The notes: a model not told the origin generated them from the sequence alone. A DNA stretch of 64,000 nucleotides from Antedon mediterranea (GCF_964355755.1 NC_092677.1:580101-644100), one strand, 5' to 3'; positions 28,301-52,617 are shown, counted from the stretch's first letter. A program made the numbers and translations.

Positions 28301-28496
28301 AGAATTAATTTTGTCTACACAGAATTAATTTTGTCCACACAGAATTAATTTTGTTTACACAAAATGAATTTTGTCGTTACAGAATGAATTTTGTCGCCAC
28401 AAAATGAATTTTGTCGTTACAGAATGAATTTTGTCTACACAGAATTAATTTTGTCAACACAGAATTAATTTTGTCTACACAGAAAGAATTTTGTTT
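25327..28496. mobile_element. Foldback-like element with inverted 20-bp tandem arrays (IS3EU-like TACGG terminus); right terminus lost
   Basis: Array GACAAAATTAATTCTGTGTA at ~25360-25880 mirrored by TACACAGAATTAATTTTGTC at ~28140-28496; inner unique inverted block ttagccgagcctactcaagcgtgggacaaaacg / aaattagaaggcgg; left end TACGGGGCGCC. Confidence 0.7.
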
Positions 28497-29026
28497 AAGT
28501 TATCTAAACATCGTTAACGTTACATTTTGTCCCCACTTAAGATACACGAGTAATTGAATTGTGGATAATGCTATCAAGGCAGGATATTTATTTGCATCTC
28601 TTTCTTTTATGCTGTAAGTATAATCGAATATGGTCCAATTTGTATTTTTTTTTATAACATTAACAATTGAATACTGGTATACTTTAATGTATAATGTTGT
28701 ACAGTAGTTTAAAACATAATTTTTACAAATACTAATAGATCACAGCATTTTCCTCAATATACAATTGTGGAAAGTTGCCCATATCGGGTTGTTAAAATAA
28801 AATTAATCAATTTATTGGTTGATCAACCATTACTTTTTTGTTTAACAAAATTCAGTCTTACGAAAATGTTCTGCAGTAACAGTGACTGCTGATGACATAG
28901 ATGTAGCTGAAGGATCTGAAGCAAGAATAACATGTAACATTGTACCAGCTAGCAGTGGAGCCGTTCCTGTTGTAACATGGTATAATGTTACCAATGCGGC
29001 AAATGATTTAATAGCATCTTATCAGA

Positions 29027-30354
29027 TAGCCTGGGTGCAGTACAAATTTTGCGGGAAAAAAGTATAGGAAAATTTTTTTCTTTTTTTTCTGATAGAGTAT
29101 ACCATATAGAATGTCAGAAAAAAAATCCCCATCCCAGGGTCTTGGGGAAAATTTTTTACGGCACTTTTAAATTTTGGCCTATATAACACACACAAATGCC
29201 TATTAACACACACAAATACCTATATATAGGGGATAGGGAAAACCAATTCACGTTTTTTTTAACTTGGAGTTGTGTTATGATTATTAAAATTAGCTGAGGC
29301 TTACTTTAATAACTACTTATCATAGTAGTTGATAAATCGAGTCGATAACAATGACATCATCATGCCAGAATCCAATATGGCGTCCAATTTGGCGGAAAAA
29401 AACAGGGTATTGCTAAACCCCCGCAAACCCCTGGAAACCTCCAAAATAACATAGCAAACCCCCACCGAACCAACATAAAAGTGATTGAATCATGTAGTGT
29501 ACGACCCACTGGGTACATCCATGAAAAAAAAAATTAAATTTCTACTGTTAACTACTTATTTTTGGGTCAAAACATCATATTTTGGTCAAAAATGATTGCT
29601 AAACCCTGCAAACCTCCAAAAAAACATAGCAAACCCCACCGAACCAACATAATAAAAGTGATTGAATCATGTAGTGTACGACCCACTGGGTATATCCATG
29701 TTTTAAAAAAAAAAAATTTCTACTGTTAACTACTTATTTTTGGGGTAAAACATCATTTTTGGGTAAAAAATGATTGCTAATTTTTAACCAAAAAATGACG
29801 TTTTATCCCAAAAATAAGTAGTTAACAGTAGAAATTTTAATTTTTTTTTACATGGACATACCCAGTGGGGTGTACACTCCATGATTCAATCACTTTTATG
29901 TCGGTTCGGTGGGGTTTTCTATGTGTTTTTTGGAGGTTTCCAGGGGTTTGCGGGAGTTTAGCAATACCCTATTTTTCCCGCCAAATCGGACGCCATATTG
30001 GATTCTGGCATGATGATGTCATCGTATCGACTTGATTCATCAACTACTATGAGAAGTAGTTATTAAAGTAAGCCTCTACTAATTTTAATCATTAAAACAC
30101 AACTGCAAGTAACAAAAACTGTTAATTGATTTTCCCTATCCCCTATATATAGGTATTTGTGTATGTTAATAGGAATTTGTGTGTGTTATATAGGCCAAAA
30201 TTTAAAAGTGCCATAAAAAATTTTCCCCAAGACCCTGGGATGGGGATTTTTTTCTGACATTCTATATGGTATACTCTATTAGAAAAACAAAAAAAAAATT
30301 TTCCTATACTTTTTTCCCGCAAATGTGTATAATAATTGTTCTGCACCCAGGCTA
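29027..30354. mobile_element. Palindromic non-autonomous Academ-type element (1328 bp, 3-bp TSD AGA) inside the V exon
   Basis: AGA|TAGCCTGGGTGCAG...CTGCACCCAGGCTA|AGA; the arms are inverted over about 580 bp; removing it restores YQSGFGTV, matching YQGGFGTV in the paralogs. Confidence 0.9.
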
Positions 30355-31053
30355 AGAGTGGATTTGGAACAGTAGAACCTGGATACAGTGACAAATTTAG
30401 TGTTGAAAATGACATTACTCTTGTAATTACCAACACTCTCAGAAGTGATAGTGGAACATATCAATGTAGTGTCAATTTAGTTGGAGATAGTCCATCATCT
30501 GATAATGATATATGCACTCTGACTGTAAATTGTGAGTAAATCTTTTATTTTTTATCCATGGGTACGCTTACTTAAAAACGCAGTAGTGTCAGATTTTCAG
30601 AAAAAAACCTAATTACGAATAACTTTAATCCCACCTTTTTAATTTCCATTTTCTTTAGTTTTTTCTCATCTTTTTTCTGTTGATTGTTCAGCGCTTAGAG
30701 GCGTCCTGCATTTTGCGCTATAGTAAATTGAACATTATTATTATTATTATAACTTGGATAAGTACCATGGTTGAGGGGTAAAAGTTCATACTCCACTCAA
30801 ATTCATCTGGATTCTTTCCTGCCTGGACTACGTATTGCATAGGCTTAAACTTCGCGATTTATTATATCGTCTACAAAGCAAACTACAACTCAACTAGTGC
30901 TGATTGTTATACGACCGTCTAAAATACTATTTTATATACAAAAAAGTGCTGTAACTGAGTTTTTTCTAAAGCTTTACTTAATTTGAACAACATAATCTTG
31001 ATCGTCAAGGTTCAAATCCAAACGCGGTCGTCACACCTAAGCAAGCACAAACA

Positions 31054-32608
31054 ATGGCATTGTCACCAAATGATAGCGCTGACTTGATTGAATTATTTCA
31101 ATCAATGAAATCGTCCCCGGTATTATCACCGGTTTCTCCAGATCCTGTTTACAACAACTCAACGAAATCGCCTCCGATACTGTCACCGGTCTCTATTACA
31201 CAAAATCCAGTTAAAAATAAACTTGAACAATATCTTGTGGAAGAAAGAGGCACAATAGAATGTATAGCAGGGTGTGATTCAACAGGAAAAAACGAAAACA
31301 CAATAGCATGTACTCTTTGTTCAAAGCAGTACCACAGGACATGTGCAGACGCAAAAGGAAAAAAAGGCCCATGGATATGCTTAGTGTGCAAACGTATTCC
31401 TAGCATACTATCAACTCTAACAGAGACTATCTTAGTATTTGACCAACGTTTAAGATATATTGATGAAAGGCTGACCAAAAAGAAACCTGATTCAACCAAT
31501 GAAGTGACCAAGACCCAGGAAAAAAAACAACTTCTCATAAACAGTGAGTCAATGAAAAAAGAAATAGAATGTCTGCGACATGAACTAAAAGAAAGTAACA
31601 ACATCCTCATTGAAAACACCAAACTAAAGGCTGAAATAAAACTCCTAAGACAGGAGCTAAAGTACACAGAAAACAACAGACAACCCAACGCTACCGGCCT
31701 ACAAGAAATAAGGGTAGAAATGGAAAAAATGAAAGAAAAAATCAATAAAACAGAAAGAGAAAACAAACTAACAGCTAATGCTTTCATAGATGTCAAGCGA
31801 AACAACGATATGATCCTGCAGAAAGATAAACAAATAACAAATCTCTAGGACAAACTACAGACAGCAATACACGAAACAGAAAAAGCAAGGGAGTACGCGT
31901 ACGAAGCAAAACGAACCCAGGTAGCCATCGAAGCATCAGACTTCCAAACCGTTAACTCAAAAAAAGACAGTCAAAAATTTTCGTATGCAGAAAGTCTAAT
32001 GAAAAATAATGACACACATCGAGCCTACGAAAGCAAGAAACCATCTGTATTACTATTAGGAAATTCGCACTTAAAAAAAGTCGAAGCAAGTCGTATTTTA
32101 CCAAAAGCAGATGTAAGCATTACACACGCATACACTAATGACCAAATTTGAAATGCACTCGATGAAATCCACGAAACACTTTGAAGACTGTATAGTAATC
32201 CACGAAATAACTAACTCTGTAAAGGAATCAGCTCCAGAAAAGTGCGCAGAAACGCTATACAACACAGTCAGTGAGTATGCCACAAAACATCCAGACACTG
32301 AATGTTTGATATCACTTGGCTTACCACGAGCAGGCCCACTAAATTTCAGAATTGAAATAGCAAACTCATGTATAAAGCACAAGATACGCACAGACAAAAT
32401 ACCAAACCTAACATTCTGCGACAATAGCAACTTCTTACGAAACGGCGAGCTGGTCGACACACTTCTAGCACCTGATGGATACCATCTATCAGATGGAGGC
32501 ACCAGCCTATTGGCCAGTAATGTCAGATACAAAGTTGAAAACGTTCTAGGTCTATCTCGCAGAAAAGCTAACACAGGAAGAGGTAGACCACGTTACCACA
32601 AATTTTAA
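31054..32608 (+). pseudogene. LINE ORF1: PHD finger + coiled coil + SGNH esterase-like domain (stop at 31846 and a frameshift)
   Basis: CIAGC..CTLCSKQYHRTC..WICLVC; long heptad region; LLGNSH, HEITN, DGYHL. Confidence 0.8.
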
Positions 32609-32910
32609 CAATTGTAAGGTAACACAAATTCAGAAAGTTATTGTAACTGAAATTAAGCAGTAGACATAAGCATAGTATTATAAATTATATTAATTAAAAT
32701 AGTTTTTTATAGACAAATACAATCAATAAACATACAAAATCAAAGCATGGATAACAATTAAAATAACGGTGATGAAAACGAAATATCAAATCCAATGGAT
32801 ATACTATTTAATCCAATTTCTATTGATAATGGTAATATAATAATGACCATGACGAATTCATTGAATATAGTCTCAGAAACAAGCTAAATGCTATTGAGAC
32901 ATGTTCTTAT

Positions 32911-35692
32911 ATGAGTCCATATGACTTGAATGAATCTGTGAAGAAATTAAAAAATATTGGCTACTCATTTCTTCACTATAATATTCGAAGTATCAATAAA
33001 CACATTGATGAACTAACTACATACCTAAACTTAATCAACCACCCCTTTACAGTTATTGGTATATCGGAAACATGGTTAAACAGTACATCGTGCAAACCAT
33101 ATTTACCGAGCTATGACTTCCTCGCATTAGATAGGAAGAACCGTAAAGGAGGGGGAGTTGGTATGTTTGTTTCTGCTACAATTGACATAAAAGAAAGAAA
33201 AGATCTATTTATTGAATCTTGTGAATGTATTTTTATTGAAATAATTGAAAAAAAATGTAACAATACGATTGTTGGTATAATATATAGACCTCCCGATTCG
33301 AATATAGAACTTTTTAATAGATCACTAGACGATATTCTTAATACTATTGATATCGAGGGAAAATCATGCCACATTATGGGTGATTTTAAAATTAATTTAC
33401 TTAAGCATGCATCGACTGATTTTGTAAATAATTTTCTAGAAGTAATGATGTCGCATTCCTTCTACCCATCGATTTCAAGACCCACTAGAATACAAAACAA
33501 CACATCTTCATTAATTGATAACATTTTCTCCAATACACTTTCTGAACAAATGTCATCTGGTATACTAATCTCAGACATATCTGATCATTTACCGGTATAC
33601 CAAATTATCCACTCCGTGCCCGACAAACATATTAAAGTAAAAACCGGTAATATAGAACCTCATAAATATGCAATAAACGAAAGAAATATAAATAAACTAT
33701 ATAATGACTTATTACCTGTTGATTGGGCTGATGTATATGTAAGGACAAACCCTGATGATGCTTAAAATGCTTTTATCAACACTTTCAAAAAATTATATAA
33801 TAAAAACTTTAAAAAAAAAGAAAAAGTTCAAGAAAATCACAAAAAGTATAAAAAGTTCAAACAACCATGGATGAGCTCAAGACTCTTAAAGTCTAGCAAA
33901 AGAAAACATGTGTTGTACAACAAATTTATAAAACATCCCTCGTCTAAAAATAAGGATATTTATAAAGAGTTTAATAAGTCATTTATGCGTACATGCAAAA
34001 AGGCAAAGAAATCATATGAAAATGTTTTTAACAATACTAAAAGAAATAAAAAAAAAACATGGAATATTATAAATGATATTATAAATCCAGGTGGAGGCAA
34101 AAATAATGTTCCATCCACTTTTACATCTGGTGACAAACTCATAGAGGGTTGTGAGCCTATTGCAAACCACATTAACGATTATTTTATTAATGTTGGTCTC
34201 AAGGTACGAGACAGTATTGAGCCATCAACGGCACAATACTCTGATTACCTGCTAAACAGGCAAAGTAACTCTATGTTTTTCTACCATGTAAATGAGGAGG
34301 AAGTGTTAAAAGTGATTCAATCACTTGATGCAAACAAAACACCTGGTTTTGATGATATTTCACCAAAGGTAGTCAAGGCAGTTGGTGATGCTATTGTAAA
34401 GCCCTTGACTTATATATTTAACGTATCTCTTCACTCCGGCTCAATACCGGAACAGATAAAAATTTCAAAAGTAATTCCCATATACAAAAAAGGGGACCGT
34501 CATTTAGCCTCGAATTATCGCCCGATATCACTACTACCAATTTTCTCTAAAATCTTTGAAAAGATAGTCCATTCCAGATTGTATAATTACTTTAAAACTT
34601 ACAATATACTAAATGATTGGCAATATGGCTTCCGAAACAATCATTCAACCTCCCACGCTATAATTGATCTGATCCACAAAATACTAAAGGCATTTGAAAA
34701 CAAAGAGTTCGTAATTGCCACATTTATGGATTTGTCAAAGGCATTTGATATTATTGACCACAGTATATTACTGAACAAGCTATTCCACTATGGTATAAGA
34801 GGTGTTACACTAAAATGGTTCAGTAACTACTTAAAATCACGAAAGCAATATGTTTTTATAAATGGTACTTCGTCTAATATTAAGGAGACTAGTATTGGTG
34901 TTCCACAAGGGTCCGTTTTGGGACCTTTGTTGTTTCTTGTATATGTAAACGATATATGTAACTCAAGTACACAAATTGAATTAATTAGCTTTGCCGATGA
35001 TACAACAGGATTCAAGTGTGGAAATAACCTGAACGCATTGGCAAACACTATGAATGTGGAACTATATAGAATTAATATGTGGTTCAAAGCTAATAAACTT
35101 TTATTAAACACCAGCAAAACAAATTACGTAATCTTTAAAACTGCCCAAAGGCGTATTATTACAACCAATATTGAATTGAAAATGAATAACATTACTTTAG
35201 AACAACAAAAAAATGTAACATTTCTTGGGGTTGTAATAAATGAGAACCTTTGCTGGAAAAATCATATAAGGCTTATTAGCAAAACAACCGCTAGGGCTAT
35301 TGGAATATTGATAAAAACTAGACATTTTTTTGCTAATTATATTTTAACAAATTTGTATAATACATTAATTCTACCGCACCTTCAGTATGGAAACATTATT
35401 TGGGGCAGTACATATGATAGTACACTGGAATCCCTTCTTAAACTCCAGAAAAAGGCTGCTAGAATAATTTTATTTAAAAAGCCATGGCAACATTCTGAGC
35501 CACTGTTTAAGCAATTAAATATACTTAACATACAAGATATCAACAGAGTTACTGTCCTAGGTTTCATGGCCCAGATAAAAAGCAATGTTTTACCCAGACG
35601 AATCCAAATGATATTCAAAAGAAACGAAAATACTACCCATAATCTTCGAAATATTTGTAGCGTAAAACAACCATACTCTAGGTTAACGTCTG
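32911..35692 (+). pseudogene. LINE ORF2: AP endonuclease + reverse transcriptase (stop at 33763, frameshift, broken by an insertion)
   Basis: HYNIRS, ISETWL, IYRPP, MGDF, IDNIF, SDHLP; NYRPISLL, DLSKAFD, PQGSVLGP, FADDT. Confidence 0.9.
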
Positions 35693-38600
35693 TAGGCTAG
35701 TCAATCTAGCAAAAAAAACAGCCCAAAGTGAAACAAATTGCAAACAGAGATTTTTCTTTTTTAAATGGTCATATATGATGAGGAGATCAAAATTTGAGCA
35801 TCACACCTCTGTCACTCATCCCGATGATATGCAAATTAGCTTAAATATGCAAATTAGGGTGAAATTACAAGGTTACCATATCTCAAAAACTACTAGTCCG
35901 AGAGAGTTGATTTTTTCACTGATCTATTCAAAATGTATATATTTATATTTACTCTAATGAAACATTTTACGAAAAAATGACCGGAAGTACAACATTTGAC
36001 CTTCGACCCCATTTCTCAATGTTTGCATATACAATGTGACTAAAATGTCTGTAGAGACTTTATTTTGCCCTCAAATGACCCAGACATGGGTTCCTAATAG
36101 CCAGCATAGGATCACTTTGTAATTCCCAAAATCACACCTTTGTCACACACCTCGAAAGTATGCAAATTAGTAGTACAATTTAAATAAAATATGCAAATAA
36201 GGGGAAAAAATTACAGTTGTCCTATATCTCAAAAACCACTAATGCTAGAGAGCTGATTTTTTCACAGCCGTATTCAAAATGTACATATTTCTATTTGCTC
36301 CAATGAAACATTTTACAAAAAATTGACCGGAAGTATGACATTTGACCCTCGACCCCATTTCTCAATATTGCATATATAAATGAAACTAAAATGTCTGTAG
36401 AGACTTTGTTTTGCCCTCAAATGACTCCGATACAGGTTTCTAATAGCCAACATAGGACTGTTTAGTAGATCTCAAAATCACACCTGTATCACTCACCTCC
36501 AAAGTATGCAAATTATTAGTACAAGTTACATGAAATATGCAAATTAGAGGGTGAAATTAAAGGTTCCTATATATCGAAAACCACTAAGGCTAGAGAGTTG
36601 ATTTTTTCAATAACTTGTTCAGAATGTACATATTTATATTTACTCTAATGAAACATTTTACGAAAAAATTACCGGAAATACAACAATTGACCCTCAACCC
36701 CATTTATTAATGTTTGCATACATAATGCGACTAAAATGTCTGTAGAGACTTTGTTTTGGACTCAAATAACTCGGATACTTGTTTCCTATAGTCAGCATAG
36801 GACCGCTTTGTAATTCCCAAAATCACGCCTTCGTTTTGGCATGGTTGGAATTCCCTTTTTTCATATTAGTTTATGTACAGCGCTTAGAGGTTACACAACA
36901 TTAGGCGCTATATAAATCTAGGATATTATTATTATTATTTCTCAATATTTGCATATAATGCGACTAAAATGTATGTACAGACTTTGTTTTGGCCTCAAAT
37001 GACTCGGATACAGGTTTTATATAGCCAGTATAAGTCAAGCACCTCGAAAGTATGCAAATTAGTAGTACAAGCTATATGAAATATGCAAATTACAGTGAAT
37101 TGCCTTATGTATCTCGAAAACGCTAATGACCGAGAGAGAGAGATATGGCAACTTTCTTGTACTACTGATTTGCATACTTTCAAGCGAAGTAACAGAGGTG
37201 TGATTTTGAGAATTACTAAACAGTTCTATGCTGGCTATAGAAAACCTGTATCTGGGTCATTATTGAAAAAAAAATTTATCGAAAGTATGACATTTGACCC
37301 TCGAACCTATTTCTCAATATTTGCATATAATGCAACTAAAATGTATGTACATACTTTGTTTTGGCCTCAAATGACTTGGATACAGGTTTTATATAGCCAG
37401 TATAGGATCGTTTAGTAATTCCAAAAGTCAAGCAACTCGAAAGTATGCACATTATTAGTACAAGTTATATGAAATATGCAAATTACAGCCTTATGTATCT
37501 CGAAAAACGCTAATGACCGATAGAGATATGGCAACTTTCACCTCTTGTACTACTAATTTTCATATTTTCTAGGGAAGTAACAAAGGTGTGATTTTGAGAA
37601 TTACTACAGTTCTATGCTGGCTATAGAAAACCTGTATCTGAGTCATTTGAGGCCAAAACAGTCTGTACAGATATTTTAGTTGAATTATATGAAAATATTG
37701 AGAAATAGGGTCAAGGGTCAAATGTCATAATTCAATCAAGACAATTTTTGCATAAAATGTTTCATTACAGCGAATATAAATATGTACATTCTGAATCAAC
37801 TCTGAATTCAAATCAACTCTCTAGCATTAATGGTTTTCGAGATATGGGAAGACTGTAATTTCACCCCTAATTTGCATATTTCATGTAACTTGTACTAATA
37901 ATTTGCATACTTTCAAGGTATGTGACAAAGATGTGATTTTGGGAATTACAAAGAGGTCCTATGCTGACAATAGGAAAACTGTATCCGAGTCATTTGAGTC
38001 CAAAAAAATTATCTACAGACATTTTAGTCGCATTATGTATGCAAACATTGATAAATAGGGTCAAGGGTCAATTGTTGTATTTCCAGTCATTTTTTCGTAA
38101 AATGTTTCATTAGAGCAATTATAAATATGTACATTCTGAACAAGTTTTTGAAAAAATCAACTCTCTACCTTAGCGGTTTTCGATACATATAGGAACCTGT
38201 AATTTCACCCCCTAATTTGCATATTTCATGTAACTTGTACTAATAATTTGCATACTTTGAAGGTGAGTAATACAGGTGTGATTTTGAGATTTACTAAACA
38301 TTCCTATGTTGGCTATTAAACCTGTATCCGAGTCATTTGAGGGCAAAACAAAGTCTCTACAGACATTTTAGTTTTCATTATATATGCAATATTGAGAAAT
38401 GGGGTCGAGGGTCAAATGTTATAGTTCCGGGCATTTTTTTGTAAAATGTCTCATTACAGCAAATATAAATATATACATTTTAAATATTTTAGTGAAAAAA
38501 TCAACACTCTAGCATTAGCGGTTTTCGAGATATGGCAACGGTGTTATTTCACTCCCTAATTTGCATATTTAATATTACTTGTACTACTAATTTGCATACT

Positions 38601-39052
38601 TTCGAGGTGCGTGACGAAGTTGTGATTTTAGGAATTATAATACAGTTCTATGGTGGGTATTGAAAAACAATATCCAAGTCATTGAGTCGAAAATAAAGTC
38701 TCTTCAGACATTTTAATCACATATATATGTAAATATTGAGAAATGGGGTCAAGGGTCAAAATTTGGTACTTCCGGACATTTTTATGTAAAATGTCTTATT
38801 AGAGCAAATATAAATATATATATTCTGAACCAGACTGTGCAAAAATGAACTCTCTACGATTAGTAGTTTTTAAGATATGGTAACCCTGTAATTTCACCCT
38901 AATTTGCATATTTAAGCTAATTTGCATACCTTCGGGATGAGTGTCAGAGGTGTGATGCTCAAAAAATAATTACCTTATCATATGTAAACATTTAAAAAAA
39001 AAAATCTCTGTTTGCAATTTGTTTCACTCAAAATGCTAGATTGACTAGCCTA
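35693..39052. mobile_element. Non-autonomous Academ-type foldback element (3360 bp, TSD CTG) made of inverted ~350-bp tandem units
   Basis: CTG|TAGGCTAGTCAATCTAGCA...TGCTAGATTGACTAGCCTA|CTG; the empty site acgtCTGgtcaa is present in sister LINE copies (~59050-59065, ~61877-61892); repeated unit ...tatgcaaattag...gacatttgaccc... Confidence 0.92.
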
Positions 39053-42000
39053 CTGGTCAACATTTTATCAGTATTCACGGACCGAAACTATGGAACGAGC
39101 TCTGTAGAAATCACTTAGATATTGTTAACAAAAATTATAAAATACTAAAAAAATATGTAAAAAGAGACATTTTATCGAATTAAAGAACTTAAAATGCTTC
39201 ACTCATAAAATATAGATGCATATATTATGCATTTGTGTTGGTGTGTGCGAGTATACACACATAGCCTGTTTTATATTATATGTACTCATACTTTTGCTAT
39301 AATATATATAGAAAGAATCCACATGTACTGGAAGTAATAAACTGAATATCTTCTTTTTTAAGACAAAATGTATAAATAATCATGTTAGAAAAACAGTATC
39401 GCTTTTTGATGATGAACAACTCTAAAATGTATATAGGAAATGTTTTTTTTTTTATTTTTTATCTATTATGTTGTGTTTATTGTTTTATGTTTTTTATGTA
39501 AAAGGGTCCTGCGAAAACAGAAGTGTAAACTTCTCTATGCAGGATCCTTGCCATCATTTATGCTATGAAACTGTATTTATAAACGATGAGTAAATAAATG
39601 TGAATTGAATAGTGTTACATGGGTTACGTTACGGTTTAAACAAGGTTTAAACAAATTATTAATGTTATAGGTTTAAAACTGAACAATTAAACACACGACT
39701 TTTGGTTTTCAGATAAACCTGATGAGGATATTGCAAATGATCAGACTGTTCCTCCTGGTGAGACTTTTACAATAACATCTACTGTAACAGCTAATCCTTC
39801 TGACGTCACTTATTTGTGGACTACTGATCTTCCTGGAAATGAAGATTCTGTCAACTATCGACCAACATTTACACTGAAAGTATCGGAAACAGAGGTTGAT
39901 GGCACTATTTATTTAGTAAATATAACAGTTACAAACATTATTGGATCAACAACGGATTCAGCTAATATCACAATATCTGGTAAGATTTTAAATGAAATGA
40001 TATTCATGAGAAATATTTTAGCTTTATCTACTGGATACAACTGTGAATACCAGTGATTCTGAGATTGATCTAAATGTTATCTGCTAGCTTCATTTTTGGT
40101 ATTAGGTGTTAACTTCATCAATTCATTTTTGTAAAATATTAAAGCAAACGATGGATGGACTGGAATTGCATTTACATGAGCAAGATTTATACAATATTAG
40201 TTTAACTATAGATTGTTCATTAAAATACAATTAAGTAGTTCATGTTTCGATTTGTTAACTATAAGTAATAATTATTTTAATTGCATAGCAAGTATTACTA
40301 ATAATTGAGGTAATTTATACTGTAGGCCTACAAACGACTTAAACATAAAAACAGTCGTTTAGGAGTATGGAAATGTATACTACTGTATTATGCTATGGAT
40401 GTATTAGTTCCTTCAACTTAGTTCATTTAAATTTTTCCTAAAACTATTCCAGTAATTATGACTGCTGTTATGAGTTCTTTATTTAATTATAAATGCCATT
40501 TCATATTAATGTTTGTGTTAAGGTACAGAGTAACAATTTATATTTTCCATGATCAACTGCAATGCATTAAAAAAAAAACACCCAGTTTTTAATTAGAATA
40601 TAAAAATCCCCATATTAAGCACCAGTAACATAACCATTAGGAAATCATGCCACTGATGCGCTGAGCTAGCAGGCCTATTACAAACTTGTTTCATTTAGTT
40701 GATGAGCGTTTGCGTGTTTTCGGTTAAAAATAGCATTAAGTCAACAGTTTCAGTCAAAACCACGTCTATACCAATTACAAGTAAGCGTCGTTTAATTAAT
40801 GAATTTGTGTTTTAGATATTCAGTACTGGAGTTTCATACAAACGACATTGGCTCATATTCTACAATACCAGATTTTACTACAATTTAATTTCAATATCAA
40901 TATACACCCGTTATGTTTACATATTGAAATAAACAAATCATATAAAATACATTGATAGATTAGGACTGTAATATGCTAACAAAAAACATTTTCCTTCAGA
41001 GACAACAGCCGAGTCATGTAATGATACTACGGGTTTGACCATCGGGATGTTCTTTGTTGGCATCATACTTGGTGTCTTAGGATTTTACATTGCAGTAATT
41101 ACTCACAACAAGATAAAGAAGGTTGGTAAAATGCAGTATGAATATTATATTTATATAACCATTATAATTTTCGAACTATTCATGCTGACAGTGGCAAAAA
41201 TAATTCAAATTGATGGACTACATTCTACTAAAATAAAATGTCCAACATTATTGCACAAAATATAATTGAAAAACATACAGTAGTGTATACAGAGTAATAA
41301 TAACTTTATATTAATCTAATAGAAGTCACTGTCAAAGGAACAAGACTCAGACAAAAGGAAACAAGATGTAAGTATCGATATAATCTATAAAGAGGACAAA
41401 CCAACGACTGGTAATCCAATTGAAAATATTATGATTGTGCATACTATATTTTAGTTACTTTTAGTACGATCACCACAAGTTATTGTATTGTGACTTTATT
41501 GCTTATTTACTACATTGTATAATAGTTTCTTATGTTAGCAATCCTTTGCTTTTTAACAGACTTACATGGATTATGGAGGAGACACTGGCGAGCAAAAGCA
41601 AACCTATCAAGATTTACAACATAACGTAGAAGAGTCAGCTTATGTTAATGTTAAGGCTGGGAATAAGCAAAAGGGAAAAGTATGAACTATTAAGAAATGA
41701 ACTAAAAGCATAAATCAATAGATATAAGCTTTTAAGGACTGTGTTTAATAAAGTAAATGTAAATGTATGTATAGCGCATTCCACAAACTATGCCGTCTTT
41801 TGTTTATATTGTTATCTTTATTTGCTACATTTTATATTTACAAATTCAATAATGTTACAGTAATTTTAAATTGTATGATAACTTGAAATGTTATTGTAAC
41901 TTTACATTTTTTTAATAATTGTCTTTTTATGAAATGTATTTTTGTAACTGTAATTGTATTATCGAGGACCCCAATGATCATCTTTTGGTGAACGGGCTAC

Positions 42001-42309
42001 CCTCATTGAAAATGAATAAAAAACGTACGATTCATTACTTAACCTCTCAATGTGTAGTTATTTGTTCGTGTCTATATTTATAAGGCATTTGAATTAGCAT
42101 GAGATACTTGAGTTATTGTTGCTGTTGCATTTGCCTACTGATAGGTGACAGTATTTAGATTACAATAAAATACTTCCTTGATAGGGATGGACTTAATATT
42201 TGGTGTAAATGACGACTAAATGGGTGCGAACTTTGTGTACGGTGCAAGAGTATTTGTAATAAACGTTCGGTAAACAATTCTGTGCAGTCGTAAAGAGCGG
42301 TTCATTGTC

Positions 42310-42935
42310 ACTTCCGGCATCGATAGGTCTAAATTAAATTTGTTATTTTATGGCAATGAAACAATTGTGAGTTGGGAGAGGAGTTTTGTCAACGAAATAT
42401 ACTAGACGGCCGCCGGATCATCAAACATAAGGTATGTCATTACTATAGAACTTCGCCCGAGAGCTGGTATCCCAAACTCTCATTTTGATATTCCATTTAC
42501 TGATAAAACCTCTATACCCTAACTCTCTCGATCCCGGTGGAAATGTAGTTTATAAACTTTCCAGTACAATTCTAGCAATGTTGATACCGGCCTTCCCCAA
42601 TGGATACATTCTCCCTCCTCTCTCTGCTGATATACATTAGCTGTTTCCTTTATAGGGATGAACTTATTTTGTGCAAATGACGACCAAATTAGTGCGAACT
42701 TTGTGTACGGTCTAAAAGTATTTTGTTTTTAAACTTACGTTGTAAAATTCTTTGCAGTACTAAAGAACGGTTTATTGCCGCTTCCGGCATCGACAAACAT
42801 ACATGTAAATTTATGAAAGAATTATGAGTTGGACCCGGGACTTTCCCCACTAAATTCTTAATTATGTCTAGTCACGTGCAGTGGCACGATAATACAATCC
42901 TGTACTACCTATTGAAATGGGGTTGTAATGTGGTT
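42310..42935 (+). promoter_or_regulatory. Putative proximal promoter of copy 2: NF-kB, ETS, E-box and RUNX motifs
   Basis: GGGACTTTCC 42837-42846; ACTTCCGG 42310-42317; GCTTCCGG ~42780; CACGTG 42873-42878; TGTGGTT 42929-42935; ATG at 43049. Confidence 0.55.
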
Positions 42936-43048
42936 AAAAAACTGTATTTGTTAGACAATGAAATGTATTAGGTAAATTATCTAAACATCGTTAAACATTC
43001 TTTCTATTTACGATAGGTAGCCTACACGAGTAATTGAATTGTTGGATA

Positions 43049-46000
43049 ATGTTATCAAAGCAGGATATTTATTTGCATCTCTTTCTTTTATGCTGTAAGT
43101 AATCAAATATGGTTCTATTTGTGCTTTGCTTTTTTTTTATTTTGTAACATTACAAAGTTATTATAATACTGGAATACTTCTTCATTTTCTACGTTGTTTT
43201 CTGCCTTTGATATTTTATTCGGACCCCAATGGAAACTAATTCTTTTTCTTAGGATTAATTGGGTTGTCCTGAATTCATCATCAAATGTTTCTCTTTTGTT
43301 TTCTCTCTTATGTTTTTTCATTTGACTGTTTTTATGTATGATATTTATGATGTATGGATTCGAAATAAAAACAAACAATATCATTCTGTACAGTAGTATA
43401 AAACACTTAAAAGTAAAAACAATCCCATTATTGTTTGATCATGTTCTATTACTTTTTTGTTTAACAAAATTCAGTCTTACGAAAATGTGTTGCTGTAACA
43501 GTGGCTGTTGATGACGTAGATGTAGCTGAAGGATCTGAAGCAAGAATAACATGTAACATTGTACCAGCTAGCAGTGGAGCTGTTCCTGTTGTAGCATGGT
43601 ATAATGTTACCAATGCGGCAAATGATTTAATAGCAAACTATCAGGGTGGATTTGGAACAGTAGAACCTGGATACAGTGACAAATTTAGTGTTGAAAATGA
43701 CATTACTCTTGTAATTACCAACACTCACAGAAGTGATAGTGGAACATATCAATGTAGTGCAAATTTAGTTGGAGATAGTCCATCACTGGATGATGACACA
43801 TGTGCCCTGACTGTAAATTGTGAGTACAGTAACTCCTTAATTAGGTGTGGTACATAACTTGAGTCTCATAATTCTCATAAATTGAAATGCTGTTTGTCAA
43901 TAGGATAGGACGGTCAAAGGTTTAAAGAGGAATCCTAGTTTAGAATTTCTCTTATCGTTCCAGTCCTTAACAGTGTATTAAGTGAAGACAAAAAAGGATA
44001 TGTTGATAGAAGATTAAACAATAATTATTGTTTTTACTCAATAACTTACTGTATTCTTTAAATTTTACCAAATATTGCCTAATATAAATTATTCTTAAAA
44101 TTTATAGATTTAGATAAACCCGAAATTAACTTTTTGACACTTGTAACTGAAGGAGATGAAGTTGTCATGACCTGTGTTGTGGATTCGAGTCCAGAAGCTA
44201 TGTGCAACTTTATAAAAGATGGTGACGTACTACCACATGATGGTTCATGTACGTTTACAATTCCATCAGCCAGTCGTGCTGATGATGGAAGTTATGAGTG
44301 CGAGGCGGATAATGGTGTTGGTAACAAACAAAAAAGTGACCATAGAAACCTAGAGGTACAATGTAAGTAGTTTGTGATGATTTGATGTTAAGGTAAAATG
44401 ATGATCAGATCTAAGTTTATAATTCCACAATACACGAAAATGGGCCGCCATGTGTGCTAATTAATGTAGGATTGCAAATTCCAATAAATAGATATCTACA
44501 ATGTAGGCCTACACGTTTATAAGAATGGTGACATGACATAATTGTCACGTGGTGATTAAAATACATCAACCATCCGTTAATCGCAGTAGCGAGTGGGACG
44601 CGGAAAAATGTTTATTTACCAAGACCAAATCTTATACAGGCGACATGGGTTACGTTACGGTTTAAACAAGGTTTAAACAAATTATTAATGTTATAGGTTT
44701 AAAACTGAACAATTAAACACACGACTTTTGGTTTTCAGATAAACCTGATGAGGATATTGCAAATGATCAGACTGTTCCTCCTGGTGAGACTTTTACAATA
44801 ACATCTACTGTAACAGCTAATCCTTCTGACGTCACTTATTTGTGGACTACTGATGTTCCTGGAAATGAAGATTCTGTCAACTATCGACCAACATTTACAC
44901 TGAAAGTACCGGAAACAGAGGTCGATGGCACTATTTATTTAGTAAATATAACAGTTACAAACATCATTGGATCAACAACGGATTCAGCTAATATCACAAT
45001 ATCTGGTAAGATTTTAAATGAAATGATATCCATGAGAAATATTTTAGCTTTATCTACTGGATACAACTGTGAATACCAGTGATTCTGAGATTGATCTAAA
45101 TGTTATCTGCTAGCTTCATTTTTGGTATTAGGTGTTAACTTCATCAATTCATTTTTGTAAAATATTAAAGCAAACGATGGATGGACTGGAATTGCATTTA
45201 CATGAGCAAGATTTATACAATATTAGTTTAACTATAGATTGTTCATTAAAATACAATTAAGTAGTTGATGTTTCGATTTGTTAACTATAAATAATAATTA
45301 TTTTAATTGCATAGCAAGTATTACTAATAATTGAGGTAATTTATACTGTAGGCCTACAAACGACTTAAACATAAAAACAGTCGTTTAGGAGTATGGAAAT
45401 GTATACTACTGTATTATGCTATGGATGTATTAGTTCCTTCAACTTAGTTCATTTAAATTTTTCCTAAAACGATTTCAGTAATTATGATTCAAGATTCAAG
45501 ATTCAAGAAATTTTATTTGTCCATAAAATGGAAATTCACTTTGCTTGGTAGATTAAAACAACAGTATTGCAACAATTTAAAAACGTGCAGTATTATAACA
45601 GATTAAAAATACAAGATAAAAAGTTAAAAATACTGTTAAAAATGTAAAACTATTAAAAATTGCATTAACGTCTTACATTAGAATTAAAAATATGAATGCT
45701 ATTTACAACGAAGGATTTTCTAGTTCTACAATGATTTGCTCTTGGAGGTCGTAGCCTAATGCCTGATCTATTTAAGTTATAACAGTAATGTAACGGATGA
45801 GTGGGGTCTTTCATAATATTGTTAACTTTTTTTTAGAATACTCTTTTCATAGATAAATGAACAAGGCGTTAGATCAGCTTTAATAATACGTTGTGCAATT
45901 TTACGTGGTCTCTCAATATTTTTCTTATCATTTTCAGTAAAGTTACCATAAAAACATCCAATGCTAAAAGATAAAATACTTTGAATAATACTTTGATAAA

Positions 46001-47443
46001 ATAGAATTAAAATAGTGTTATCAACTCTAATTTGCTTGAGTTTTCTGAGAAAGTAGAGCCTTTGAGATGCCTTCTTGGAAATCATGAGAGAGTTTGACTC
46101 CCATTTTAATTTGTTGTCAATTATAGTACCTAAGTATTTGTATTGAGTTACTCTTTCAACCTCGGTTTCTTTAATAGTTATTACATTATGTTCAACTGCG
46201 GTTTTACGAAAATCTGACTGCTTGTATGAGTTCTTTATTTAATTATAAATGTCATTTCATATTAATGTTTGTGTTAAGGTACAGAGTAACAATTTATATT
46301 TTCCATGATCAACTGCAATGCAATTAAAAAAAAAACACCCAGTTTTTAATTAGAATATAAAAATCACCATATTAAGCACCAGTAAGATAACCATTATGAA
46401 ATCATGCCACTGATGCGCTGAGCAGGCCTACTACAAACTTGTTTTATTTAGTTGATGAGCGTTTACGTGTTTTCGGTTAAAAATAGCATTAAGTCAACAG
46501 TTTCAGTCAAAACCACGTCTATACCAATTACAAGTAAGCGTCGTTTAATTAATGAATTTGTGTTTTAGATATATTCAGTACTATACTGGAGTTTCATACA
46601 AACGACATTGGCTCATATTCTACAATACCAGATTTTACTACAATTTAATTTCAATATCAATATACACCCGTTATGTGTACTTATTGAAATAAACAAATCA
46701 TATAAAATACATTGATAGATTAGGACTGTAATATGCTAACAAAAAACATTTTCCTTCAGAAACAACAGCCGAGTCATGTAATGATACTACTGGTCTGACC
46801 ATCGGGATGTTCTTTGTTGGCATCATACTGGGTGTCTTAGGATTTTACATTGCAGAAATTACTCACAACAAGATAAAGAAGGTTGGTAAAATGCAGTATG
46901 AATATTATACTTATATAACCTTTATAATTTTCGAACTATTCATGCTGACAGTGGCAAAAATAATTCAATTGATGGACTACATTCTACTAAAATAAAATGT
47001 CCAACATTATTGCACAAAATATAATTGAAAAACATACAGTAGTGTATACAGAGTAATAATAACTTTATATTAATCTATTAGAAGTCAGTGTCAACGAAAC
47101 AAGACGCAGAGAAAAAGAAACAAGATGTAATATTGATACAATCTATAAAGAGGACAAACCAACGACTGGTAATCCGATTGAAAATATTATAATTGTGCAT
47201 ACTATATTTTAGTTACTTTTAGTACGATTACCATAAGTTATTGGACTGTGAGTTTATTGCTTATTAACTACATTGTATAATAGTTTCTTATGTTAGCAAT
47301 CCTTTGCTTTTTAACAGACATACATGGATTACGTAGGAGACACTGGCGAGCAAAACCAAACCTATCAAGATTTACAACATAAAGAAGAAGAGTCAGCTTA
47401 TGTTAATGTTAAGACTGGGAATAAGCAAAAGGGAAAAGTATGA
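43049..47443 (+). CDS. IgSF type I membrane receptor copy 2 (SP-IgV-IgC2-Cys-less Ig-TM-ITAM-like tail), 7 exons, 401 aa
   Basis: GT-AG exons 43049-43094, 43475-43819, 44108-44362, 44739-45005, 46760-46881, 47082-47126, 47318-47443 (phases 1,1,1,1,0,0; 1206 nt, open). V: ITC..WY..DSGTYQC; C2: MTC..DDGSYEC; TM GLTIGMFFVGIILGVLGFYIA; tail TYMDY..TYQDLQHKEEESAYVNV. Confidence 0.88.
45489..46215 (-). mobile_element. 5'-truncated Rex1/Babar-like LINE inserted in intron 4 of copy 2 only
   Basis: KKASQRLYFLRKL..LFYQSIIQSILSF; (TTGAATC)n tail; apparent TGA duplication; absent at the equivalent sites ~40460 and ~51395. Confidence 0.85.
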
Positions 47444-48068
47444 ACTATTAAGAAATGAACTAAAAGCATAAATCAATAGATATAAGCTTTTAAGGACTGT
47501 GTTTAATAAAGTAAATGTAAATGTATGTATAGCGCATTCCACAAACTATGCCGTCTTTTGTTTATATTGTTATCTTTATTTGCTACATTTTATATTCACA
47601 AATTCAATAATGTTACAGTAATTTTAAATTGTATGATAACTTGAAATGTTATTGTAACTTTACATTTTTTTAATAATTGTCTTTTTATGAAATGTATTTT
47701 TGTAACTGTAATTGTATTATCGAGGACCCCAATGATCATCTTTTGGTGAACGGGCTACCCTCATTAAAAATGAATAAAAAACGTACGATTCATTACTTAA
47801 CCTCTCAATGTGTAGTTATTTGTTCGTGTCTATATTTATAAGGCATTTGAATTAGCATGAGATACTTGAGTTATTGTTGCTGTTGCATTTGCCTACTGAT
47901 AGGTGACAGTATTAGGATTACAATAAAAAACTTCCTTGATAGGGATGGACTTAATATTTGGTGTAAATGACGACTAAATGGGTGCGAACTTTGTGTACGG
48001 TGCAAGAGTATTTGTAATAAACGTTCGGTAAACAATTCTGTGCAGTCGTAAAGAGCGGTTCATTGTCA

Positions 48069-48697
48069 CTTCCGGCATCGATAGGTCTAAATTAAATTTG
48101 TTATTTTATGGCAATGAAACAATTATGAGTTGGGAGAGGAGTTAAGTTTTGTCAACGAAATATACTAGACGGCCGCCGGATCATCAAACATAAGGTATGT
48201 CATTACTATAGAACTTCGCCCGAGAGCTGGTATCCCAAACTCTCATTTTGATATTCCATTACTGATAAAACCTCTATACCCTAACTCTCTCGATCCCGGC
48301 GGAAATGTAGTTTATAAACTTTCCAGTACAATTCTAGCAATGTTGATACCGGCCTTCCCCAATGGATACATTCTCCCTCCTCTCTCTGCTGATATACATT
48401 AGCTGTTTCCTTTATAGGGATGGACTTATTTTGTGCAAATGACGACCAAATTAGTGCGAACTTTGTATACGGTCTAAAAGTATTTTGTTTTTAAACTTAC
48501 GTTTTAAAATTCTTTGTAGTACTAAAGAACGGTTTATTGCCGCTTCCGGCATCAACAAACATACATGTAAATTTATGAAAGAATTATGAGTTGGACCCGG
48601 GACTTTCCCCACTAAATTCTTAATTGTGTCTAGTCACGTGCAGTGGCACGATAATACAATCCTGTACTACCTATTGAAATGGGGTTGTAATGTGGTT
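48069..48697 (+). promoter_or_regulatory. Putative proximal promoter of copy 3 (duplicate of the copy 2 promoter)
   Basis: GGGACTTTCC 48599-48608, with ACTTCCGG, CACGTG and TGTGGTT in the same order; ATG at 48810. Confidence 0.55.
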
Positions 48698-48809
48698 AAA
48701 ACACTGTATTTGTTAGACAATGAAATGTATTAGGTAAATTATCTAAACATCGTTAAACATTCTTTCCATTTACGATAGGTAGCCTACACGAGTAATTGAA
48801 TTGTGGATA

Positions 48810-51800
48810 ATGTTATCAAAGCAGGATATTTATTTGCATCTCTTTCTTTTATGCTGTAAGTAATCGAATATGGTTCTATTTGTGCTTTGTTTTTTTTTTA
48901 TTTTGTAACATTACAAAGTTATTATAATACTGGAATACTTCTTCATTTTCTACATTGTTTTCTGCCTTTGATATTTTATTCGGACCCCAATGGAAACTAA
49001 TTCTTTTTCTTAGGATTAATTGGGTTGTTCTGAATTCATCACCAAATGTTTCTCCTTTGTTTTCTCTCTTATGTTTTTTCATTTGACTGTTTTTATGTAT
49101 GATATTTTTGATGTTTGGATTCTAAATAAAAACAAACAATATCATTCTGTACAGTAGTATAAAACACTTAAAAGTAAAAACAATCCCATTATTGTTTGAT
49201 GATGTTCTATTACTTTTTTGTTTAACAAATTCAGTCTTACGAAAATATGTTGCAGTAACAGTGACTGTTGATGACATAGATGTAGCTGAAGGATCTGAAG
49301 CAAGAATAACATGTAACATTGTACCAGCTAGCAGTGGAGCTGATCCTACTGTAACATGGTATAATGTTACCAATGGGGCAAATGATTTAATAGCCAATTA
49401 TCAGGGTGGATTTGGAACAGTAGAACCAGGTTACACTGACAGATTTAGTGTTGAAAATGACATTACTCTTGTAATTACCAACACTCTCAGAATTGACAGT
49501 GGAACATATCAATGTAGTGCAAATTTAGTTGGAGATAGTCCATCATCTGATAATGATATATGCACTCTGACTGTAAATTGTGAGTAAATCTTTTATTTTT
49601 TATCCATGGGTACGCTTACTTTAAAACTCAGTAGTGTCAGATTTTCAGAAAAAAATCTAATTACGAATAACTTTAATCCCACCTTTTTAATTTTAATTTT
49701 CTTTAGTTTTTTCTCATCTTTTTTCTGTTGATTGCTCAGCGCGTAGAGGCGTCCTGCATGTTGCGCTATAGTAAATTGAACATTATTATTATTATTATAT
49801 AACTTTGATAAGTACCATGGTTGAGGGGTAAAAGTTCATACTCCACTCAAATTCATCTGGATTCTTTCCTGTCTGAAAATTGTATTCAGTGATTTTATAA
49901 AGTGAGACAATTGTGTTAATATAAGATTAAACAATATTGTTTTTAACTCAAATGATCCCATTTTTAAATTGTACTATTTTTTGCCAAATACAGTAATATA
50001 GATTATTCTTAAATTTTATAGATTTGGATAAACCTAGAATTAGGTTTTCGACACTTGTAACTGAAGGAGATGAAGTTGTCATGACCTGTGTTGTGGATTC
50101 TAGTCCAGAAGCTATGTGCAACTTTATAAAAGATGGTGACGTACTACCACATGATGGTTCATGTACGTTTACAATTCCATCAGCCAGTCGTGCTGATGAT
50201 GGAAGTTATGAGTGCGAGGCGGATAATGGTGTTGGTAACAAACAAAAAAGTGACAATAGAAACCTAGAGGTACAATGTAAGTAGTTTGTGATGATTTGAT
50301 GTTAAGGTAAAATGATGATCAGATCTAAGTTTATAATTCTACAATACACTAAAATGGGCCGCCATGTGTGCTAATTAATGTAGGATTGCAAATGCCAATA
50401 AATAGATATCTACAATGTAGGCCTACACGTTTATAAGAATGGTGACATGACATAATTGTCACGTGGTGATTAAAATACATCAACAATCCATTAATCGCAG
50501 TAGCGAGTGGGACGCGGAAAAATGTTTATTTACCAAGACCAAATCTTATATAGGCGACATGGGTTACCTTACGGTTTAAACAAGGTTTAAACAAATTATT
50601 AATGTTATAGGTTTAAAACTGAACAATTAAACACACGACTTTTGGTTTTCAGATAAACCTGATGAGGATATTGCAAATGATCAGACTGTTCCTCCTGGTG
50701 AGACTTTTACAATAACATCTACTGTAACAGCTAATTCTTCTGACGTCACTTATTTGTGGACTACTGATCTTCCTGGAAATGAAGATTCTGTCAACTATCG
50801 ACCAACATTTACACTGAAAGTATCGGAAACAGAGGTTGATGGCACTATTTATTTAGTAAATATAACAGTTACAAACATCATTGGGTCAACAACGGATTCA
50901 GCTAATATCACAATATCTGGTAAGATTTTAAATGAAATGATATCCATGAGAAATATTTTAGCTTTATCTACTGGATACAACTGTGAATACCAGTGATTCT
51001 GAGATTGATCTAAATGTTATCTGCTAGCTTCATTTTTGGTATTAGGTGTTAACTTCATCAATTCATTTTTGTAAAATAATAAAGCAAACGATGGATGGAC
51101 TGGAATTGCATTTAACATGAGCAAGATTTATACAATAGTAGTTTAACTATAGATTGTTCATTAAAAAACAATTAAGTAGTTGATGTATCGATTTGTTAAC
51201 TATAAGTAATAATTATTTTAATTGCATAGCAAGTATTACTAATAATTGAGGTAATTTATACTGTACAAACGACTTAAACATAAAAACAGTCGTTTAGGAG
51301 TATGGAAATGTATACTACTGTATTATGCTATGGATGTATTAGTTCCTTCAACTTAGTTCATTTAAATTTTTCCTAAAACTATTTCAGTAATTATGACTGT
51401 TGTTATGAGTTCTTTATTTAATTATAAATGTCATTTCATATTAATGTTTGTGTTAAGGTACAGAGTAACAATTTATATTTTCCATGATCAACTGCAATGC
51501 AATTAAAAAAAAAACACCCAGTTTTTAATTAGAATATAAAAATCACCATATTAAGCACCAGTAAGATAACCATTATGAAATCATGCCACTGATGCGCTGA
51601 GCAGGCCTACTACAAACTTGTTTCATTTAGTTGATGAGCGTTTGCGTGTTTTCGGTTAAAAATAGCATTAAGTCAACAGTTTCAGTCAAAACCACGTCTA
51701 TACCAATTACAAGTAAGCGTCGTTTAATTAATGAATTTGTGTTTTAGATATTCAGTACTGGAGTTTCATACAAACGACATTGGCTCATATTCTACAATAC

Positions 51801-52617
51801 CAGATTTTACTACAATTTAATTTCAATATCAATATACACCCGTTATGTGCACTTATTAAAATAAACAAATCATATAAAATACATTGATAGATTAGGACTG
51901 TAATATGCTAACAAAAAACATTTTCCTTCAGAGACAACAGCCGAGTCATGTAATGATACTACTGGTCTGACCATCGGGATGTTCTTTGTTGGCATCATAC
52001 TTGGTGTCTTAGGATTTTACATTGCAGAAATTACTCACAACAAGATAAAGAAGGTTGGTAAAATGCAGTATGAATATTATACTTATATAACCTTTATAAT
52101 TTTCGAACTATTCATGCTGACAGTGGCAAAAATAATTCAATTGATGGACTACATTCTACTAAAATAAAATGTCCAACCTTATTGCACAAAATATAATTGA
52201 AAAACATACAGTAGTGTATACAGAGTAATAATAACTTTATATTAATCTAATAGAAGTCGCTATCAAAGGAACAAGACGCAGAGAAAAGGAAACAAGATGT
52301 AAGTATCGATACAATCTATAAAGAGGACAAACCAACGACTGGTAATCCGATTGAAAATATTATGATTGTGCATACTATAGTTACTTTTAGTACGATTGCC
52401 ACAAGTTATTGGATTGTGAGTTTATTGCTTATTTACTACATTGTATAATAGTTTCTAATATTACCGGTAGCAATCCTTTGCTTTTTAACAGACTTACATG
52501 GATTATGTAGTAGACACTGGCGAGCAAACCCAAACCTATCAAGATTTACAACATAAAGAAGAAGAGTCAGCTTATGTTAATCTTAACGCTGTGAATAAGC
52601 AAAAGGGAAAAGTATGA
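48810..52617 (+). CDS. IgSF type I membrane receptor copy 3, 7 exons, 401 aa, tail with consensus ITAM spacing
   Basis: Exons 48810-48855, 49235-49579, 50022-50276, 50653-50919, 51932-52053, 52254-52298, 52492-52617; same lengths and phases as copy 2; tail TYMDYVVDTGEQTQTYQDLQHKEEESAYVNLNAVNKQKGKV*. Confidence 0.88.

Follow-up and report, generated by a model that had tools for sequence, protein, structure and literature searches.

A tandem array of V-C2-Ig receptor genes in the feather star Antedon mediterranea, candidate activating members of a crinoid paired receptor family

We analyzed a 64,000-nt stretch of DNA from Antedon mediterranea (GCF_964355755.1 NC_092677.1:580101-644100; hereafter the window, whose own positions are used for all coordinates), which is eukaryotic, about 33% GC and free of N, and which holds a tandem array of genes for immunoglobulin (Ig) domain receptors. 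Self-comparison of the window revealed three related plus-strand blocks between 28.5 and 52.8 kb, amid long interspersed elements (LINEs) and inverted-repeat elements, and these blocks correspond to three head-to-tail copies on the plus strand: A (28568-41685), B (43049-47443) and C (48810-52617). Copies B and C have seven exons each, with GT-AG at six of six introns, and give open frames of 401 aa that are identical at 369 of 401 residues. In both, a signal-peptide exon is followed by three phase-1 Ig-like exons, a transmembrane (TM) exon and two phase-0 cytoplasmic exons, as listed here.

43049..43094, plus strand: B exon 1, signal peptide (RNA joints depart at 43094)
43475..43819, plus strand: B exon 2, V-set Ig with canonical Cys-Trp-Cys core (Pfam; identical to RefSeq P0018)
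44108..44362, plus strand: B exon 3, C2/I-type Ig (Pfam, splicing)
44739..45005, plus strand: B exon 4, cysteine-less Ig-like domain (AlphaFold2; Foldseek match to Axl)
45485..46214, minus strand: LINE fragment of ~730 bp in B intron 4 (not in A or C, nor in the DNA runs X2-X4 described below)
46760..46881, plus strand: B exon 5, TM helix with two GxxxG, phase-0 donor (equivalent donor in RNA on copy C, 52053)
47082..47126, plus strand: B exon 6, basic cytoplasmic (RefSeq adds 14 codons)
47318..47443, plus strand: B exon 7, YMDY and YQDL-x8-YVNV (kept in Anneissia)
48810-48855, 49235-49579, 50022-50276, 50653-50919, plus strand: C exons 1-4 (splicing; RNA joints)
51932-52053, 52254-52298, 52492-52617, plus strand: C exons 5-7 (tail YQDL-x8-YVNL)

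The genes B and C are intact and encode predicted single-pass surface receptors of V-C2-Ig layout. Domain 1 is V-set (Pfam E 2e-12) and domain 2 is Ig_2/Ig_3 (E 1e-11), that is, of C2/I type, and both hold cysteine pairs (Cys42 and Cys109 in the V domain). The third domain, encoded by exon 4, has zero cysteines and weak Pfam scores (PKD/Ig_3), and is predicted to fold as a beta-sandwich (AlphaFold2 predicted local distance difference test, pLDDT, 85.6 from a 12-sequence alignment) whose top Foldseek matches are Axl Ig domains (TM-score 0.73-0.74, E 3e-4), with Tyro3 Ig domains also among the best and an Fn3-like module first appearing at rank 20. One hydrophobic segment with two GxxxG motifs forms the TM region, the basic exon follows, and the four tail tyrosines (Y362, Y365, Y376 and Y388) all lie within exon 7. 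The glutamate in the TM segment of B and C was considered as an adaptor-pairing charge and rejected because the residue is Val, Gln or Tyr in relatives. An earlier reading of this DNA, made from the sequence by itself (the sequence-only reading), had described three seven-exon copies encoding V-C2-Ig receptors with a signal peptide, phase-1 Ig exons, a TM exon and two cytoplasmic exons that bear four tyrosines. Splicing confirms this structure and the open 401-aa frames for B and C; the four tyrosines and the V and C2 assignments stand as well, but the tyrosines all belong to the last exon, the extracellular Ig-like domains number three, of which the third lacks cysteines, and copy A is not a seven-exon gene.

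Copy A is a broken gene. Its V exon is interrupted by an element of 1328 bp that has perfect terminal inverted repeats of 14 bp and a target duplication of 3 bp, and no C2 exon for this copy is present in the window, where both blastn and tblastn match the C2 exons of B and C only. At the corresponding site, where C has 681 bp including the C2 exon, A carries a LINE with a nested 3.36-kb foldback element. The remaining parts of copy A and the spacer that follows it are listed here.

28568..28613, plus strand: A exon 1, signal peptide (differs from B and C at 2 nt)
28856..29026, plus strand: 5' piece of the A V exon
29027..30354, strand not assigned: non-autonomous DNA element of 1328 bp in the A V exon, with TAG...CTA ends, terminal inverted repeats and target duplication
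30355..30531, plus strand: 3' piece of the A V exon (first 3 bases are the target duplication)
30826..39616, plus strand: LINE with PHD-type ORF1, endonuclease and reverse transcriptase, with the foldback nested at 35693-39052
39713..39979, plus strand: A third Ig-like exon
41000-41121, plus strand: A TM exon; 41323-41367 and 41560-41685, plus strand: A cytoplasmic exons
41686..43048, strand not assigned: A-B spacer (15 mismatches in 1361 aligned bases against the B-C spacer)

The elements at 29027-30354 and 35693-39052 are both non-autonomous, with TAG...CTA ends, which we take to be Academ-like, and 3-bp target duplications; they look unrelated to each other, and the foldback contains 345-bp repeats arranged as an inverted array. 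At 25352-25949 and 28138-28497, related arrays of a minisatellite with a 20-bp, partly palindromic unit run in opposite orientation, and the second of them stops just upstream of copy A.

Copy B equals RefSeq XP_071958967.1 (P0018, named 'CEACAM6-like') in every exon except for a 14-residue extension of exon 6, the first cytoplasmic exon, which brings that model to 415 aa. The 401-aa length of B is therefore provisional, since the RefSeq exon 6 is longer and the exon 6 donor reads gtaata in B (gtaagt in A and C). Residues 151-401 of copy C are identical to RefSeq XP_071958592.1 (P0011; 251/251). The RefSeq names across the family (CEACAM6-like, Robo2-like, JAM-A-like and uncharacterized) are automatic and hide one common family. 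As far as our searches show, the B and C genes have been annotated automatically but not described; that is, we found no paper on this crinoid Ig family by title or start of abstract, with most subscription journals outside the search.

Four sequencing runs were compared with the window as contigs, one likely RNA (X1) and three DNA from one sample (X2-X4). None of the runs is recorded as RNA; X1 is presumed to be RNA from its mostly exonic cover and GT-AG joints, though portions of introns 1 and 2, as well as the LINE fragment, are covered too. Its joints on copy C connect exons 1 and 2 (48855 to 49235), enter exon 3 at 50022 and leave it at 50276, and leave the TM exon at the phase-0 donor at 52053, and its loose ends connect the end of exon 6 with exon 7. 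An alternative TM-exon donor 4 bases downstream, which would give a 382-aa protein lacking the motifs, was dropped since the RNA uses the phase-0 donor. Among the 110 X1 contigs on C, 9 are at least 99% alike, 26 are 95-99% alike and 75 are below 95%. X1 thus shows many expressed family members, not B or C specifically. The DNA runs carry one dominant, mostly C-like version of the unit (it agrees with C at 16 of the 20 differences listed outside intron 2), and a contig present in X2 and X3 spans a 3' flank, the spacer and the exon 1 that follows. In X2 and X3, the B/C-like unit has about three times the contig depth of diverged paralogs; this depth is no measure of copy number and was not used.

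To place the array in a family, we searched with the V domain, with a family profile and with a profile of the TM region plus tail; because what these searches return are cluster representatives, the resulting gene counts are minimum values. The V-domain search gave 6 matches among 331 candidates, all from A. mediterranea, and the family profile gave 13 among 7996 scored, of which 12 are crinoid and the other is a mussel hemicentin (28% identity over 49% of the query). Conserved proteins of the Ig superfamily (IgSF) with adhesion or neural roles (Robo, contactin, JAM, hemicentin) yielded no one-to-one orthologue in searches that need shared 5-residue words, which remote orthologues could escape. 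At least ten A. mediterranea RefSeq genes have the tail type of the window copies (P0018, P0011, P0003, P0009, P0002, P0014, P0015, P0016, P0029 and P0037), two have a different tail (P0001 and P0022) and one has a short unrelated tail (P0004), and all of these genes are listed on one chromosome-scale contig of 28,587,047 bp. P0006/P0010, on another contig, have no membrane helix and are possibly a secreted decoy form. The family is real, expressed and crinoid-restricted, with expansion in two crinoid genera and with two intact copies and one broken copy in the window; in this, the sequence-only reading of a lineage-specific, expanding invertebrate family of Ig-TM-tyrosine genes is supported.

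The tail shows what the members have in common. The TM-plus-tail profile, built from six sequences, matched 19 clusters among 1.84 billion representatives, and the 13 of these that carry names are all crinoid (5 Antedon and 8 Anneissia japonica). Their ectodomains vary (V, I, C2 and EGF), and P0023 (Anneissia) carries four repeats of the tyrosine module, P0024 two. YxxL is present in 18/19 and Y-[VIM]-N in 18/19, with both 6-13 residues apart in 17/19, in a set that is biased by a selecting profile that includes these motifs and by the 3/19 used to build it. At the last tyrosine, the +3 residue varies (V, L, A, S) whereas Asn is kept at +2, and hence the conserved unit of the tail is YxxL plus a Grb2-type YxN site. 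YxN is a Grb2-type adaptor site. This meaning of the motif is also given in the available part of PMC5112662. [quoted passage not shown] When Val is tolerated, 12/19 show the ITAM spacing, and in 20,000 shuffles of the tail the relaxed paired-tyrosine pattern arose in 1.1% (B) and 2.1% (C), and the strict one in 0.24% (C).

The relatives with a different tail are central to the interpretation. P0001 (XP_071959156.1, three isoforms) shares 93% identity with B in the V domain, 94% in C2 and 72% in the third domain, so that its V domain is closer to that of B than that of C is (B-C, 87%). After its sole and different membrane helix (324-353), P0001 has a fourth Ig domain, two xLYxxV motifs, LQYADL (a tyrosine-based inhibition motif of immunoreceptors, ITIM) and TTYASI (a switch motif, ITSM). 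The tail of P0022 (XP_071959158.1) is like that of P0001 (63% identity over 89% of the query region) and was the only match in a search with the P0001 TM region and tail. The ectodomain of P0022 belongs to a second subtype, its third domain grouping with that of P0002 (62% identity, ultrafast bootstrap 88), and thus both tail types occur on both ectodomain subtypes. P0002 is itself a mosaic relative to B (V 93%, C2 32%, third domain 36%). For these assignments we relied on identities and on the third-domain clade since the V and C2 trees are weakly supported among close members. In both P0001 and P0022, the Ig domain upstream of the ITIM and ITSM is predicted to be cytoplasmic based on Pfam and hydropathy; a single-sequence fold of P0001 (pLDDT 32) was not used. 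The Anneissia gene LOC117102741 joins a homologous ectodomain to a tail that combines GGxLYTxV with the module YMDY/YQDL/YVN, and this speaks against the view that P0001 is just a mis-join. The language-model (Atlas) neighbours of the P0001 TM region and tail are CEACAM1-like, BTLA and G6b-B clusters (0.91-0.92), which we treat as a lead only. P0001 and B, as RefSeq models, present similar ectodomains on an inhibitory-type and an activating-type tail, respectively, as paired receptors do.

The divergence between B and C is concentrated in particular exons. The background (introns 1, 3, 4 and 5 plus the spacer) shows 45/3327 differences; it excludes intron 2, which is mostly unalignable, and intron 6 (8/186 differences). 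Against it, the V exon shows 27/345 (about sixfold; Fisher p 6e-11) and the cytoplasmic exons 14/171 (p 5e-7), whereas the third-domain and TM exons are at background (7/389, p 0.49). Synonymous sites of the V exon are raised as well (~10/80, p 4e-7), and therefore the V exons are older in ancestry than their flanks, a pattern that points to exon exchange among paralogs. A tract in which B departs from both A and C was likely exchanged with another paralog:

43786..44140, plus strand: tract with nine consecutive B-only sites where the V exon ends, an intron 2 mostly unalignable with that of C, and the start of the C2 exon

Mosaicism is thus seen at the DNA level among the window copies, and at the protein level only for P0002 and P0001. 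The sequence-only reading proposed rapid duplication; an expanding family is supported, but B and C show no sign of positive selection.

Given a near-identical ectodomain on an ITIM/ITSM tail, a conserved YxxL...YxN tail and exon-restricted mosaicism, we favor, with moderate confidence, the hypothesis that B and C supply the activating side of a family of paired Ig receptors in crinoids, the predicted inhibitory side of which lies elsewhere on the same contig. Under this hypothesis, the N-terminal V domain would bind a ligand on a microbe or on another cell, receptors would be able to pair or cluster through their GxxxG membrane helix, and a Src-family kinase would phosphorylate the tail, which could then recruit Syk/Shark via YxxL and a Grb2-type adaptor via YxN, leading to engulfment or coelomocyte activation. 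The ITIM/ITSM partner, binding the same ligand, would recruit SHP/SHIP phosphatases and damp the response, and the repertoire would turn over by tandem duplication, exon exchange and loss to transposons, as in copy A. From these features we infer an immune function, as the sequence-only reading did, and the near-identical ITIM/ITSM-tailed relative strengthens that case; ligand, cell type and signalling are predictions.

Several observations weigh against this hypothesis. Positive selection was not seen between B and C, the ratio of nonsynonymous to synonymous differences (pN/pS) being ~0.5 in V and overall. No ITIM/ITSM-tail exon occurs within the 64-kb window, and P0001 and P0022 are known as automatic gene models only, from a tandem family, the P0022 model having no signal peptide and no V domain. 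Most RNA contigs match B or C at 85-95% and thus speak for the family, not for these copies. The strict ITAM (YxxL/I-x6-9-YxxL/I) is present in 2/19 tail matches even with a spacer of 6-12 allowed, and in only one of the three window copies (C, YxxL-x8-YxxL; A and B end in YxxV), and in the window copies the final tyrosine is compatible with a relaxed ITIM (SxYxxV/L) as well. In addition, the Atlas neighbours of the region from domain 3 through the tail are of mixed polarity (allergin-1, ICAM5, FCRL1 and CD22, with shared features below 170 in all rows), and hence the polarity proposed for the tail is tentative.

Among known systems, the NITR, CD300 and SIRP families, which the sequence-only reading had named, resemble the crinoid family as clusters of V-domain receptors with activating and inhibitory members. 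They differ in their domain sets (V or V-I, single V, and V-C1-C1, respectively, vs. V, C2 and a cysteine-less Ig here) and in that most of their activating forms rely on a charged residue in the TM segment together with an adaptor, whereas the TM Glu is not conserved in the crinoid family. Invertebrate ITIM receptors with a cytoplasmic Ig domain ('ICRs', in amphioxus and oyster) reportedly exist, although we did not find them in the literature; if so, P0001 and P0022 have the layout of these receptors (Ig, TM, cytoplasmic Ig, ITIM), and such an architecture would in itself not be new. The window copies have no cytoplasmic Ig. The paired CEACAMs (CEACAM1/CEACAM3 and the Xenopus ceacam pairs) are like the family in having a V followed by C2-type domains, a tandem cluster, near-identical ectodomains on ITIM/ITSM and on ITAM-like tails, YxN beside an ITAM-like motif, and what appears to be exchange centered on the V exon. 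CEACAM N domains, however, lack the cysteine pair of the Ig disulfide, whereas the V domain here has it, the similarity is remote and at the Ig level only, and the inhibitory form in crinoids has the predicted cytoplasmic Ig. V-exon exchange and the retention of YxN in ITAM-type tails of paired CEACAMs are described in the available parts of PMC5112662 and PMC2832619, the former also showing a YxxL split by a phase-0 intron in the CEACAM ITAM-type tail, as opposed to the undivided exon 7 here. Among invertebrate deuterostomes, receptors with ITIM or hemITAM are described in the available parts of the sources for amphioxus BbLcLRR (PMC8211107) and Botryllus FcoR (bioRxiv 10.1101/2024.10.16.618699). 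FcoR likewise form a multigene set of TM receptors, with core tyrosine motifs besides ITIM and hemITAM, but are described as fester relatives that switch motifs by allele and splicing, and we found no sequence relation to them. In the available part of a 2025 review of invertebrate IgSF (PMC11999971), echinoderms are named only in a phylum list.

Alternatively, these proteins might be adhesion, neural or tissue-remodelling receptors (e.g., for clearance of the animal's own dying cells in regeneration) that use Grb2-type signalling and have no role in defence. The best solved structures for the family profile (which include Robo2, contactins, DSCAM and MDGA, beside FCRL5 and CEA), the generic nature of YxN as an adaptor site, purifying selection between B and C, and EGF domains in several Anneissia members are all consistent with this possibility. 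It is nonetheless unlikely in our view: no conserved orthologue was found outside crinoids among the profile matches described above, and conserved adhesion genes do not typically show turnover of copies, a broken copy, mosaic domains or a matched relative with an ITIM/ITSM tail.

The sequence-only reading had also raised allorecognition, and nothing tested here supports it. In such a role, polymorphic V domains would bind their like on other cells, the ITIM form signalling self and the window form attack. Feather stars are solitary animals. The concentration of B-C divergence in the V exon would fit such a role, as would the likeness in layout to the Hydractinia Alr genes for which it was proposed, also an invertebrate tandem IgSF cluster with one exon per domain, exon shuffling, pseudogenes and both ITAM and ITIM tails (available part of bioRxiv 10.1101/2022.03.04.482883). 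Yet the Ig disulfide is absent from most Alr domains, and the third Alr fold is Fn3-like, whereas the crinoid V and C2 domains keep their cysteine pairs and the third domain is Ig-like, and no Alr protein was among the matches of any search run here; we therefore regard this role as quite improbable.

We give an equally low chance to the possibility that the window receptors are themselves inhibitory or switch-type, their last tyrosine serving as an ITIM, in a set of dampening receptors without pairs. SAYVNV/L fits the relaxed ITIM in all three copies, allergin-1 and CD22 are among the Atlas neighbours, and LOC117102741 combines the motifs of both Antedon tail types in one tail. However, the relaxed ITIM occurs anywhere in the tail in only 7/19 matches, and its I/V/L form in 1/19, the +3 residue drifting to A or S while the Asn is kept. 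Finally, it is very improbable that the pattern is partly artefact or drift (i.e., B and C being alleles assembled in tandem, the ITIM-tailed relatives chimeric models, and the array a neutral recent duplication): B-C introns and spacers do differ by only 1-3%, within the range of alleles, and the single dominant, mostly C-like version in X2-X4 without the B insertion argues for the allelic explanation, which the sequence-only reading had raised as a caveat, but the three copies, with P0003 (92.5% to B and 94% to C) as a close fourth gene, exceed two alleles, the X2/X3 contig crosses the spacer into a next copy, LOC117102741 indicates that the GGxLYTxV tail of P0001 and P0022 belongs to the family, and the tail is kept in two genera.

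Several mobile elements were noted in the window as well. A young LINE is present in three copies (33385-35692, 58764-61173 and 61590-64000; 98.6-99.8% identity), the right-end pair forming an almost exact 2.4-kb tandem repeat that could be a recent duplication or an assembly artefact, and a second LINE family at 54484-58265 has PHD-type ORF1, endonuclease and reverse transcriptase in several frames. On the minus strand, a 398-codon open frame at 3-1196 with THAP, HTH_Tnp_4 and DDE_Tnp_4 represents a Harbinger/PIF-type transposase that crosses the window start. Short Cys/His-rich and acidic frames on the plus strand at 21013-22283, within the inverted repeat pair 20067-20804 / 23781-24528, gave no Pfam match of note and are probably a decayed DNA transposon.

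In conclusion, what echinoderm immunity is chiefly known for is its expanded sets of TLR, NLR and scavenger receptors, and our literature search, which did not cover most subscription journals, found no report of a paired Ig-receptor system in echinoderms. We consider it possible, if somewhat short of an even chance, that crinoids evolved, independently of vertebrates, a true paired Ig system of at least a dozen V-C2-Ig receptors in which ligand-binding exons would be exchanged between a YxxL/YxN class and an ITIM/ITSM class with an intracellular Ig domain. If true, the decoy logic of the CEACAM1/CEACAM3 type would become testable at the base of living echinoderms, and such a matched activating/inhibitory Ig family would show that the paired design arose again outside vertebrates and urochordates. 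The analysis names concrete genes with which work on coelomocytes may proceed.

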